Source: Folioceros fuciformis
Lineage: Eukaryota
DNA length: 54,972 bases
Direction: 5' to 3'
NCBI GenBank assembly: GCA_049999805.1
Contig: JBNGIO010006379.1
Span: forward strand, 856,177 to 911,148
Part shown: piece after piece, positions 43,185 to 54,580 of the stretch
Layout: each line of letters starts with the position of its first letter
Position numbering within the stretch: the first letter of the stretch is position 1
Program-made: the position numbers and the translations under genes
Notes under the pieces: generated by a model
What the model saw: the letters and a program-made list of their open reading frames with translations, nothing else
The model's database searches: none
Told to the model about the DNA's origin: nothing

Positions 43185-44369
43185 ATGGAAGATGAAGGCA
43201 AGCTTATAGCACAGCACCGGAAGCCGCCGTCGCTGCACAGCCATGGGCTGCACCCGCACGCTCTGCATCCGCAGCAGCACATGCAGCACCAGCACCTGCA
43301 GCAACACCACCAGCACCAGCTCCATCAGCAGCACCCTCAGCAGCAGCAGCAGCACCAGCAGCACCACCACCCGCAGCAGCAGCATCATCAGCAGCACCAG
43401 CACGCGCAGCACCAGCACCCGCAGCATCAGCACCAGCACCCGCAGCAGCATCAGCATCCGCTCTCGGATCACAATTTCCTGGCGGTTTGCGCGGAGCGGG
43501 ACGCCCTCATTATGCAGCGGGACACTGCGGTGGCGGAGAAGGAGGCGGCCTGCGCGGAGCGAGACGCGGCCATCCTGCAGCGGGACACCGTCATCAATGA
43601 GTACAAGGTGGTGGTAGCGGCTCTGGATTCCCTCAAGGCCGAGAGGGATGCGCAAATGCAGGGACGGAAGCGGTACCCGGAACCGTCCACGGAGGGATCC
43701 AAGCTCTTCCAGGCGGTGGACAACTGCTCCTTCTCTGACGATTACGATCTGCTAACTAACCGATCGGCTCCCATGGGAATGGGCATGGGCCTGGAAGCGG
43801 AGCCCATGGCCAAGCCAACCAAGCAGGCGGCTCCTAAAGAGGGGGGTAAGAAGCACGCTCGGTCAGCCACCCCCGGCAAGAAGGCGGCTGGAGCCGGCCA
43901 GACTCCTAAGCGCAGGAAATCTCCGGGGAAGAAAGGGCAGTGGCAGGTGCAGGACGGCCAGGAGTTTCCCGACGGTGTTAAGCTAGAAGAAGGCGCAGAA
44001 GGGGCTCCCGACGACCAGCAGCAGCAGCAACAGCAGCCGCCGCCTCCTCCGCCCAAGAGGACCGGGGTCTATGATAGTGCAACCACCCCGATTCCTTATT
44101 GCTCTTGCACTGGGGTGACGCAACAGTGTTACAGATGGGGGAACGGTGGCTGGCAGTCTGCCTGTTGCACAACGTCCATGTCGCAGTATCCTCTGCCCAT
44201 GAATCCCAAGAAGCGCGGGTCGAGGTTGGCTGGAAGGAAGATGAGCGCTGGAGCATTTGAAAAGCTCTTGGAAAAATTGTCGCTGGAAGGTGTGAACATC
44301 AACTACCCGGTTGATCTTAAAGAGCACTGGGCGAAGCATGGCACCAATCGGTATGTTACGCTTAAGTGA
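43185..44369 (+). CDS. BBR/BPC GAGA-binding transcription factor, class II-like (394 aa), no intron in the CDS
   Basis: Alanine zipper [33 protein letters not shown]-terminal [29 protein letters not shown]...[20 protein letters not shown]-rich tract. Confidence 0.95.
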
Positions 44370-50620: not shown

Positions 50621-51469
50621 TCGCATGTCCGAGTGAGAGCTATGCGAAGGATGCAGGAATTGGCTGCGTGAGGTTGTTGTGGTTTTCGTCTTCATGGTCA
50701 TGTACTCGGCTAACATGCCGGCTGGTACCCGGCTAGCGTCCGTGGGCTCCAAGCCCTGCTTGATTGAGGATCCTACTGCACAAATGTTGCTGCCTTGTCC
50801 ACAAATCTTCACCAACACGTATGGGTGTGATGTCAGTACTGGAGGCTTTGAATGCATAGTTGGAGCCCGTGCATCAGGTTCCTGAACTGGCTGGTTTGGG
50901 TCTCCTACTTCGCAACTTGTCTCATACAGCTGTTTTTGATTTTTGAGAAGAATTAATAGAACGATAGAGTCTAAGATCGGTCGAACAATTGATAGAAAAG
51001 ATTCATTTTGATCATAAAAGCTCCATGGACTCTATTCCAGTTATTAGTAGAGTACGCAGATGGTGATGAACTGAAAGATGCAAACCAGGTTGACGTAATA
51101 ATTAGCCAGACAGATAAGTGAATGCAGTACAATTCTCTTAACGGACTCAGAGATTTAAAGGTTAAGAAGTTTCTGGAAATAGTTTAGGATGCACTGACTA
51201 GTACCCAGAAGGTTCTCTGCCTTGTTTATTATGATCACCTGCAGGCTCTGTAGTCTCATAGTCTCTAGATGTGGGGTGGAGTGTGAGACAGCAGTGAAGC
51301 TGAGCTGACCTACATTTTCTTCCATGACCGGAGAACAGTGACCTGAGTTGAGCCTGGAGTTGTGGAGAGTGCTTTCTTGCTTTCTTTCTTCTTTGATCAG
51401 CTTCTCACCATGAGTCATGGGATGGAACGTCTGTTACCATTTGAGCTGAGGGACAAAATTTTGAAGCCG

Positions 51470-53447
51470 ATGGCGGTTCTTGTGTACGTTTTGTTCCTGC
51501 TGTGCTGGTGTGGATCAGCCAACGCCGTGCTGTCCACAGGATATTACGATCAACAGTGCCCAGGCGTGGAGGCGCTCATTAGAGCTCGCGTGCAGGAGTA
51601 TTACAACAACGACACGCGCGTGGGCCCTGGTCTGCTGCGTCTCCATTTTCATGACTGCATGGTTCGGGTATGTACGTCGCACCGTGCTTGGAGCGGGATG
51701 ATTTCTAGATGGACGCCGACTCTCTTGCTAACCCTGTCCCGTTCGTGTGTCTTCTTGCAGGGATGCGACGCGTCTATCTTGTTGGAACCCCCTGAGGGCG
51801 TGCAAGGGGAGTTGGCTTCCGATTTGAATGCTGGAATGAGGTTCCTCGACGTTATCTATGATATCAAAGCGTTAGTCGAAAGATTGTGTCCCGGTGTCGT
51901 GACCTGTGCTGATATTCTAGCGTTCGCCGCTCGAGACAGCGTCAATCTGGTCAGGATCTTCTTTCGTCAAGTCGATGTCTGGATTTCATTTCGTTTCAGG
52001 ATAGACAACGTCTCTTACATCCGAGTTGCGTACGTGCAGGCAGGAGGGCCAGTGTGGGAGGCGGAGTCCGGTAGGTTAGACGGATTTGTTACCTTGAAAG
52101 CGGATGCAGACGCAGCTCTTCCGGCACCGAATATGACGCTTCGTGAGCTTGAAGCTAAATTCAGCGAGATCGGCATTTCCTTGGAACAGATGGTGACATT
52201 ATCTGGTACTGCTACGCGTGCTTCATTCTTCGTTTGGAACTGTGTAGGTGTGTTCTAGCTCTAGATTTATTGATGAGGTGTTTCATCTGTGATTGCCTTG
52301 ATCAGGCGCACACACCGTGGGTCAAGCGCGCTGTTCTACTTTCCTGGACAGATTAGAACCCCGCATTGCACCTGACTTGGATATCGGTTATGGGATTTCA
52401 CTTCAAAGACAGTGCAGATCTGATAACCTTACGGGAGACCTTCATCACGAAACTAGAGTATTTTTGGATGTTGCAACTCCTACGCTGTTTGATGATCAAT
52501 ATTTCAGTAATCTGGCAAGACGACGAGGTCTTCTTGATTCTGATCAATTGCTTTTCGAAGAGAATAGCACAACAGCACTTGTACGAAGATACATGAGAAA
52601 TAGACCACTATTTTTCGCAAATTTTGCACAGGCTATTCTTTCTCTTGGCCGAGTTGGTGTACGGTTGCAAGGCGACAGCCAAGCAGAGATTCGACTTGAT
52701 TGCCGAAGAACGAATCCTACTGCTTTTGGCAACAGTACTCGTTCTGGCAACGATACGCACGACAGTACTCCTTCAGTCAACAATATTCCTCGTGGCAACA
52801 ACACCGCTCCTGGCAACTATATTACTCCTGGCAACTATACTACTCCAGGCAACAATACCGCTGCAGGCAACCATACCGCTCCAGGCAACTATACCACTAC
52901 TCCAGGCAACAATACCGATGCAGGCAACCATACCGCTCCAGGAAACCATCTCGCTCCAGGCTACCACCTCGCTCCAGGCAACAATACCGCTTCAGGCAAC
53001 CATCCCACTCCAGGCAACAATAGCGCTTCAGGCAACAACACCGCTGCAGGCAACCATACCGCTCCAGGGTTCCATACCGCTCCGGGCAACCATCTCGCTC
53101 CAGGCAACCATACTGGTCCAGGCAACTATCGCACTCCAGGCAACAGCAGTACTGCTCCAGGCAACAATAGCGCTTCAGGCAACAACACCGCTCCAGGCAA
53201 TTATATTATCCCAGGCAACTACACTACTCCAGGCAACAATACCGCTGCAGGCAACCATACTGCTCCAGGGTTCCATACCTCTCCGGGCAACCATCTCGCT
53301 CCAGGCAACCATACTGGTCCAGGCAACTATCCCACTCGAGGCAACAGTACTGCTCCAGGCAACAATACCGCTCCGAGCAACAATACCACTTCAGGCAACA
53401 ATACCGCTTCAGGCGACGTTATCGCTTATCACATTTTGACAATGTAA
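51470..53447 (+). CDS. Class III secretory peroxidase with long repetitive C-terminal extension; exons 51470 (or 51410)-51667, 51761-51949, 52040-52205, 52306-53447
   Basis: Signal peptide, [31 protein letters not shown] (distal His), CPGVVTCADILAFAARD, GRLDG, LSGAHTVGQARC (proximal His), TPTLFDDQYF and EIRLDC. Canonical 3-intron layout. Confidence 0.95.
52788..53415 (+). repeat. Coding 18-bp minisatellite, about 35 units (consensus CCAGGCAACMATACYGCT = PGN[NH]TA)
   Basis: In frame with peroxidase exon 4; unit-length variants are +3 nt and preserve the frame. Confidence 0.95.
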
Positions 53448-54580
53448 TTCACTCTTTACCTTCTAACTGATTTGATATAGAATAACTTTACTTATTATGC
53501 CATGATTTTGGCGTAGTACATGATGTTGAAGATGTATTGTATGAACTCCTTGTGAATGTATAATAGATCAATAAAATGATTTTTAATATTTCTTCTTCTT
53601 TTTTTCTGATTTAGATATAAATAAAAAAATTATATGTCTTTTATTATTTTTATATATAATATATATTTTAATGATAGTTTAAAATAACAGTCAAGTTAGA
53701 AAAGATAAAATGCAGAAACATGACGTGTCCAACGTGTTTATCAAATTTGAAGGAGTAATATGAACTGTTCCAATATTGTCCTCTAAGACAATCAAAGACT
53801 ATGAAGCATGATTAGCAAGCGATATACGTTCATGACATACATTACATCATGACTACTAAACACTTCAATCACTTACTCATATCGTTGAGGAATGACGTAC
53901 ACAATGACTTGTACACACTACTGCATCTAGGAGTCTACCATATGAACAACTGGTCCCATAAATCTAATTCTATTTTGTTGATGGATTGAAGTTCAATGTT
54001 ATTAGAATGACCAATGTAATATTATATATTTTATTCTCTAAAGAATTATATTTAAAGCTATAAAAATATGTGTAGACCCAACAACGAACGTCTTTCTTAA
54101 AACAAGAAGAAGACGAAGACTTTATTAAAAAAACAGCATCTATTCGATTTAAACAATGAAGTGAAGAGAAGACCGAAAGTAAACGGATCCGGTGTACGAC
54201 ACACCTCCCCTGTTGAGCACAGGTTTTTAACAAGCGGGGTAGTATAACACTAAACGGGAACTTCCCGCTCGAGAAGAAACGCGCCGCGGAAGCAAGTCAA
54301 GTGTTCAGTTGGTAGTTGCTGGCGGAAAGGGCGTTACAGCGCGCACACGAGCGCACTGAAGTCGCTGGTGCCAAGACACCATACCAGCGCCCAGAGCCAG
54401 CCACCCAAGATTCCCGACAACTCGCTTATGCATCTCCCACTCCTGCCAGAGATCCGGGTGCCCTTTTGCGCAGGCGGCTGGAATCATCAGGACTGCCGCC
54501 TCCTGGATTAGCCCAGGATGCTGCAGTGATACCCGTGGCCACCACAATTCTGCAGGAGGGAAATAGCGGAAGAGGATCAG

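Follow-up and report, generated by a model that had tools for sequence, protein, structure and literature searches.

Class III peroxidases come in dozens of near-identical forms, and what directs them to different sites in the wall has yet to be explained. The locus described here bears on this question. It lies near the end of a window of 54,972 nucleotides (the whole stretch of DNA that was analysed), and its reading frame continues past the end of a peroxidase into a hexapeptide repeat that is dense in N-glycosylation sequons. Is this fusion transcribed, where did the repeat come from, and what might it do for the enzyme? The arm is discrete and deletable, 243 residues long, which makes one answer to the problem of peroxidase placement directly testable. 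We argue that the product is most likely a peroxidase that is secreted and active, and that its arm forms a disordered glycan brush, which would hold and shield the enzyme in the wall or matrix, a reading to which we give a probability of roughly 0.55 and in which the steps that follow transcription are predicted.

The gene and its transcript

By scanning for splice sites we modelled a four-exon class III peroxidase gene at 51410-53447 on the forward strand, as are all parts of this gene given below. Its last exon falls in a frame of 381 open codons (52302-53447). The spliced product has 584 residues from the ATG at 51410, or 564 from the ATG at 51470, and is computed to consist of a 302-residue haem-enzyme part (33.5 kDa) followed by a tail of 24 kDa, i.e. 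the 243 residues between the peroxidase-end motif (ending CRRTN) and the TAA at 53445-53447. The coding part of exon 1 (51410-51667) holds the distal Arg/Phe/His motif and matches the N-terminal piece of PF00141 (E 2.3e-5). Exons 2 (51761-51949, 189 nt) and 3 (52040-52205, 166 nt) follow, and the peroxidase part of exon 4 (52306-52715) carries the proximal His, the proximal Ca and Asp motifs and the last Cys. The introns (51668-51760, 93 nt; 51950-52039, 90 nt; 52206-52305, 100 nt) are all GT..AG and sit at places usual for the family, and the sizes of the two inner exons are ones that we take to be usual in class III peroxidases.

Exon 4 alone scores 70.2 bits against PF00141 (cut-off 27) and matches 26 PDB sequences, the best of which is sorghum SPC4 (7.2e-21). 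The distal Arg/Phe/His, the proximal His with its Asp partner and two sets of Ca-site residues were found at 75, 87, 102, 107, 204, 258 and 280, using an HRP residue numbering of the motifs that, apart from His170, we presume to be correct. All eight conserved cysteines are there (C50, 83, 88, 129, 135, 214, 241 and 337 of the spliced product), and eight Cys forming four disulfides are described as a feature of class III peroxidases in passages of 10.1101/851881 and PMC4322221. Hydropathy reaches 3.05 over residues 22-32, right after Met21, in a protein whose start ATG has several candidates. Judged by its sequence, the gene product is a class III plant peroxidase, with catalysis predicted. 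The core is divergent: the closest paralogue is 44% identical in exon 4, at the strict threshold of E<=1e-15 one of 534 candidates was a relative (38% identical), and identity is at most 37% among 106 long peroxidase records, for a query that contained introns. No orthologue was found among the 534 core candidates or the 106 long records, a result that does not imply absence.

Five ATGs lie towards the 5′ end of the transcript, at 51324, 51410, 51417 (out of frame), 51422 and 51470. The first of these opens a five-codon upstream ORF in the 5′ leader, and the last is directly followed by the signal-peptide-like hydrophobic stretch. The neighbours at 11137-44369 are ordinary and unrelated (28 frames scanned), e.g. 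a glycosyltransferase 61, ribosomal L10, an amino-acid permease, an ARC6-like protein and the complex I 75-kDa subunit, together with a GAGA-binding factor that has a Gln/His repeat at 43271-43456.

The fusion was read by the earlier note from the DNA, and transcript data bear it out. Contig 1 of run X1 is 1305 nt long, is without all three introns, and shows 0 differences from the genome at 51281-52860 over 1297/1297 aligned bases. It extends from the 5′ leader (51281-51409, as far as the spliced contig goes), runs past the point where paralogues stop, crosses a 26-residue linker (52716-52793, with two sequons and degenerate repeat units) and continues into the array. The spliced fusion is therefore real, and the transcript check found no stop near 52720 and no end or splice before the repeat. 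The contig 1 comparison reaches 52860; the TAA and the 3′ UTR are predicted, with an AATAAA at 53570-53575 as a candidate polyadenylation signal in the genomic sequence. The evidence comes from one run of one study, and the RNA nature of X1 is a guess, supported by the skipping of the introns. Introns 1 and 2 are in frame and stop-free, such that an ORF at 51347-52258 spans both and their retention would add 31 and 30 residues respectively; contig 1 has both removed.

A second contig of X1, of 90 nt, equals window positions 53163-53252. It differs from 52794-52860 at six places, and these differences plus 15 loose letters are the reason for placing it further along the array. Its depth is 444, against 108. 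When a k=31 assembly was simulated from the spliced model, contigs of exactly 1305 and 90 nt were obtained, with the first break at 52868. Since a 38-nt internal repeat causes this break in the simulation, we do not regard 52868 as a transcript end. The array stretches covered by RNA contigs are thus 52794-52868 and 53163-53252. Sampled words extend the coverage: 0.74 of 114 words from 52306-53560 are present in one of three runs, and as query words upstream of 52839 account for 0.44 and those from 53382 onward for 0.12, the remainder of the array has to supply a share of about 0.18 or more. The other two runs, X2 and X3, gave no aligned sequence, and none of the runs is recorded as RNA, which speaks neither for nor against the fusion. 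Contig 1 and the simulated contig sizes let us reject both an artefact of assembly and a mis-called stop that is read through. The peroxidase and its tail are transcribed as one spliced piece, which is presumably translated.

Composition and origin of the repeat

Tandem Repeats Finder places an array with a period of 18 nt at 52794-53414 and gives it 34.2 copies, 75% matches and a score of 551. Counted one by one there are 34 units at 52794-53411 (206 residues, 24 sequons), with the consensus G-N-N-T-A-P; 32 of them are six-codon units and two are seven-codon units, both the result of 3-nt insertions. Degenerate units are few and are found in the linker and at the tail end. The last 11 residues (53412-53447) are mildly hydrophobic and finish with a Met and the TAA; their mean hydropathy of 1.05 is the highest 11-residue value in the tail. 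Overall there are 26 N-X-S/T sequons in the tail and four in the core. The earlier hand counts of about 25 sequons and about 35 units were right, as were the remarks that the two length variants preserve the frame and that many units bear His. A sequon starts 23 of the 34 units and 11 have none, while His occurs in 13 and Tyr in 8.

Shuffled tails of the same residues (n=10,000) contain 9.1 +/- 2.5 sequons, with a maximum of 18 against the 26 observed. We attribute this excess to periodicity, not to selection, because copying a founding unit with one sequon gives such a density. At a GRAVY of -1.0 the tail is hydrophilic; its 243 residues include 38 Gly, 29 Pro, 15 His, 9 Tyr and 2 Val but no Lys and no Glu, and its PAST content is 45%.

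The repeat unit is confined to this locus in the 87 Mb genome, which holds all 5/5 protein matches and 8/8 DNA-pattern matches here and 0 for a control pattern. It was therefore amplified in place, with higher-order block duplications inside the array (offsets of 201 and 384 nt) coming later. Capture of a dispersed minisatellite or a mobile repeat is ruled out by the same matches. Further afield, a search of 8000 word candidates (209-665 aa) gave no tail homologue at E<=0.001. Among 1.84 billion representatives there are 114 tail matches (best 1.7e-22, identity 18-54%); these look compositional, and the peroxidase motif occurs in 0/114. Atlas scores for the tail do not exceed 0.79; for exon 4 the highest is 0.89, to peroxidase clusters. 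A few of these 114 matches are unrelated eukaryotic proteins with Pro-Gly-Asn-x-Thr runs of their own, such as a subtilase from a chytrid, an NGF-domain protein of a fish and a Mucochytrium protein, which we read as probable convergence.

Is the tail under selection? The two closest block pairs have 8/12 synonymous changes against an expected 25-29% (p 0.003-0.008), or 6/10 without overlapping copies (p 0.02-0.04). The four best pairs, which are not independent, give 20/50 (p 0.02-0.07), and the two older pairs alone 12/38. Among the distinct unit variants 8/25 are synonymous, as under neutrality, and 5 of the 17 non-synonymous ones fall in the two sequon codons, which is about the chance share. 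In these counts selection for the reading frame shows weakly, and the sequons show no special conservation.

A second frame also deserves mention. The +1 frame is open for 280 codons (52597-53439) and encodes a more uniform hydrophobic repeat, L-Q-A-T-I-P, and 48 of 88 unit deviations hit the first codon position in the peroxidase frame, which is the wobble position of the +1 frame. The distinct variants show no preference for it, with 9/25 synonymous in the +1 frame and 8/25 in the peroxidase frame. As a real product it is rejected, because recent changes are synonymous in 1/12 cases there versus 8/12 in the peroxidase frame.

Possible roles of the tail

In the glycan-brush reading, a plausible idea already raised in the earlier note, the last exon would have gained a tandemly amplified 18-nt unit, in place, within this lineage. 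The product would be a haem enzyme followed by a disordered Gly/Asn/Thr/Pro arm. The action of this arm would resemble that of the Pro-rich or Pro/Lys-rich arms carried by peroxidases of moss, ferns and grasses, and that of the glycosylated arms in chimeric arabinogalactan proteins (AGPs), except that its sugar would be mainly N-linked. We favour this reading because contig 1 enters the array, the Cys and catalytic motifs are intact and the tail is hydrophilic, rich in Pro and Gly and modelled as coil. It is further suggested by the recurrence of repeat arms on peroxidases (17 of 106 long records, and the paralogue L018 described below), by the synonymous lean of the closest block duplicates and by the Pro-Gly-Asn-x-Thr repeats on unrelated proteins. 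Ala-Hyp-Gly, observed in moss secreted proteins according to parts of PMC11252719, points the same way, as the tail has 13 APG tripeptides. Counted against it are the weak selection, the 11/34 units without a sequon, the lack of an orthologue in the records searched and the 0 sites in the tail under the stricter extended Pro-hydroxylation code. No function for analogous peroxidase arms is reported in the literature searched.

The kind of sugar is less clear-cut than the earlier note supposed. Its contrast between this tail and Hyp O-glycosylated wall repeats went too far, for 24 [STAGV]-Pro dipeptides occur in the tail, with glycomodule spans at tail residues 31-99, 116-196 and 213-220. The rule for chimeric AGPs, as given in sections of PMC12209756 and PMC11252719, asks for at least three such dipeptides, spaced by no more than six residues, plus a Pfam domain. 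This rule, which has been applied to bryophytes, describes the tail beside its PF00141 domain well, and because arabinogalactan glycomotif rules of this kind apply, the tail may bear O-glycans as well as N-glycans. Of the domain types recognized in the bryophyte survey (FAS1, plastocyanin-like and nsLTP) the protein has none, PF00141 being the sole domain found. Likewise there is no contiguous Pro in the tail, hence no extensin-type Ser-(Pro)n with n>=2, and a GPI-anchor signal is missing in that no long hydrophobic C-terminal stretch exists (maximum 1.05). As for the N-glycans, HRP C1A has 8 of its 9 sequons occupied, as stated in part of PMC4322221, which makes occupancy plausible here and is silent on sites six residues apart. 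Should the sequons prove to be occupied, the tail would be an extremely dense, naturally occurring plant N-glycosylation module, useful for studies of crowded-sequon occupancy and usable as a solubility or retention tag.

The rival that survives best is that the arm does nothing in particular. A coding minisatellite may have expanded past the peroxidase end and been tolerated, the enzyme working in spite of a tail that may be glycosylated or clipped without consequence. Such a near-neutral run-on is possible because the tail shows little selection and no special conservation of its sequons: the share of synonymous unit variants is that expected under neutrality, and codons of the sequons are not depleted of change. 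It also fits a repeat at one locus only, with no homologue among the 1.84 billion representatives, and the observation that the lengths of the unit copies and of both insertions are divisible by 3, as 18-nt slippage yields without selection. Nevertheless, the newest block differences lean synonymous (8/12), this enzyme family has acquired repeat arms repeatedly, and 25 distinct units have evolved, still with no stop. We consider the run-on unlikely, if worth keeping in view. Were the tail neutral, the locus would be a clean, spliced case of a coding minisatellite making a new protein region.

At the other extreme is a more ambitious version of the brush, which we regard as doubtful. Here the tail would be a newly born, functional plant ‘N-glycan mucin’ with about 26 N-glycans plus Hyp-linked O-glycans, interleaved on one arm, and its His and Tyr would let the peroxidase lock into mucilage or the wall. 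Armed peroxidases would then form an unrecognized class, evolved several times over in mosses, ferns, hornworts, grasses and spurges, with this enzyme as its N-linked member; where such an enzyme works would be decided by its arm and not by its active site.

The tail could instead be an oversized C-terminal propeptide, whose last 11 residues route the enzyme to the vacuole while the arm is trimmed, as with the short propeptide of horseradish C1A. The mildly hydrophobic tail end with its final Met would suit this, and parts of PMC4100196 describe C-terminal vacuolar signals as having no fixed motif, with 4-7 residues being possible. Then again, these 11 residues resemble a degenerate repeat unit and may be a by-product, and known propeptides are short. 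An added C-terminal N-glycosylation site made barley lectin fully secreted (PMC4100196, in part), and here the sequon nearest to the C-terminal end is 16 residues away. We think a propeptide improbable.

Lower still we place a reactive module, its two forms both raised in the earlier note, in which the 9 Tyr are oxidized by the attached enzyme and cross-link it into the wall, and/or the 15 His bind Cu, Zn or Mn close to the haem domain. What speaks for it is that His (13/34 units) and Tyr (8/34 units) occupy one fixed unit position, and that extensin cross-linking runs through Tyr-rich motifs (PMC11252719, in part). However, most of the His and Tyr are inside a sequon, next to the glycan, and the His, Tyr and Asn codons there are one base apart and may reflect drift. 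The tail is also without Lys or Tyr-X-Tyr, hence without the extensin cross-link motifs. This makes the module a long shot.

Least probable of all is a folded beta-roll or beta-solenoid with Asn/His ladders and a flat binding face, either a left-handed hexapeptide beta-helix or something like the grass ice-binding domain. A regular beta-solenoid was proposed in the earlier note, and the regular six-residue period, with Asn and His alternating at one position and Gly at another, does invite the idea. The left-handed hexapeptide beta-helix consensus has an aliphatic residue preceding the Gly in each hexapeptide, whereas the residue before Gly here, which is the final residue of the six-residue unit, is Pro 22, Ser 5, Ala 4 and Arg 1 times (n=32), and no hexapeptide Pfam match appears at E<=10. 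The grass domain is likewise a repeat that replaces part of another secreted protein, but its NXVXG / NXVXXG motif (both points from parts of PMC5744647) is not followed, as Ala/Thr stand where the core Val would be (the tail has 2 Val in all). The tail has 0 matches to PDB sequences at E<=10, and against Pfam nothing above the cut-off at E<=10, only sub-threshold collagen scores. Both AlphaFold2 models of the tail are coil, with a pLDDT of 34-36; as they were built from 1 and 4 sequences, and the peroxidase part is unfolded too, they are weak evidence. The Pro found in 22 of 32 units is the stronger argument, and we regard the solenoid as unsupported.

Comparison with known systems

The earlier note did not recognize this architecture, and in the full-text literature searched there is no description of this fusion; long tails go unmentioned in passages of PMC8792609, 10.1101/851881 and PMC12837394. 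Parallels to the architecture nonetheless exist, since other class III peroxidases bear repeat arms and two of those arms are sequon-rich. From 4054 candidates we gathered the 106 peroxidase records of 430-2000 aa, many of which are doubled or fused gene models. By our own reading of these gene predictions 17 have low-complexity repeat arms: five C-terminal (three isoforms of one Ceratodon gene and two from Adiantum), ten N-terminal and Pro-rich (nine grasses and Fragaria) and two N-terminal and sequon-rich (Ricinus, with 14 sequons in 240 aa, and Mercurialis, with 10 in 223 aa). No sequon-dense tail at the C-terminus turned up among the 17: the five arms located there have 0-1 sequons, versus 26 in the present tail. 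These database records suggest that peroxidase arms arose several times.

The genome itself offers further examples. There are 28 exon-4 matches, with no other on this contig. Of 27 paralogous loci, 25 have a scorable end, and in 22 of these 3-7 residues follow the last Cys. The remaining three extend by 20, 25 and 108 residues. The longest is L018 (G000:C5482:41989-42375, reverse strand), which has a Pro-rich repeat tail, and adjacent to it, in convergent orientation, is L021 (C5482:37129-37515, forward strand), with a 20-residue Ser/Ala/Pro tail; both are possible chimeric HRGP-type peroxidases. The third, L006 (G000:C6258:205724-206122), has an acidic C-terminal extension of propeptide size. 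As a side observation, the genome has a several-exon gene of the LCIB family (L034, G000:C1919:3950-4891), with an LCIB match over the cut-off that is absent from 14 controls. It points to a plant with pyrenoid-type carbon concentration and, as LCIB among land plants is to our knowledge a hornwort trait, probably to a hornwort.

Among wall glycoproteins, chimeric AGPs are alike in joining a secreted folded domain to a disordered region with spaced Ala-Pro/Thr-Pro dipeptides. They are unlike in that the domain here is a peroxidase, not fasciclin, plastocyanin or nsLTP, and in that the tail has a PAST content of 45%, dominant N-sequons, no GPI signal and putative Hyp. The grass ice-binding beta-roll (LpAFP / IRI domain) shares a short Asn/Gly-containing repeat on part of a secreted protein, whereas our tail has no Val core, Pro in most units, a period of 6 residues instead of 7, and no sequence match to it.

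Compared with ordinary class III peroxidases such as HRP C1A, sorghum SPC4 and barley BP1, the protein has the same signal-peptide-like N-terminus, 8 Cys, distal Arg/His, proximal His, Ca-site residues and four exons, but 247 residues beyond the last Cys and 30 sequons versus 9 in HRP C1A. The ‘Peroxidase 7’ proteins of Ricinus communis (P0195) and Mercurialis annua (P0196), known as database records, with no functional paper found in the literature searched, likewise combine a class III domain with a sequon-rich tandem-repeat arm of 220-240 residues. In these proteins, however, the arm sits at the N-terminus, is acidic and rich in Glu, Gln and Lys, reaches about half the sequon density and is unrelated in sequence. 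Closest in layout are Ceratodon purpureus (P0183-P0185), Adiantum (P0173, P0189) and L018, where repeats of 108-330 aa come directly after the last Cys. Those tails are Pro/Lys/Glu-rich and extensin- or PRP-like, with 0-1 sequons, whereas the present one is rich in Asn, Gly, Thr and His and has 26. Judged by these comparisons, it is a lineage-specific, sequon-dense variant of the loosely known ‘peroxidase plus repeat arm’.
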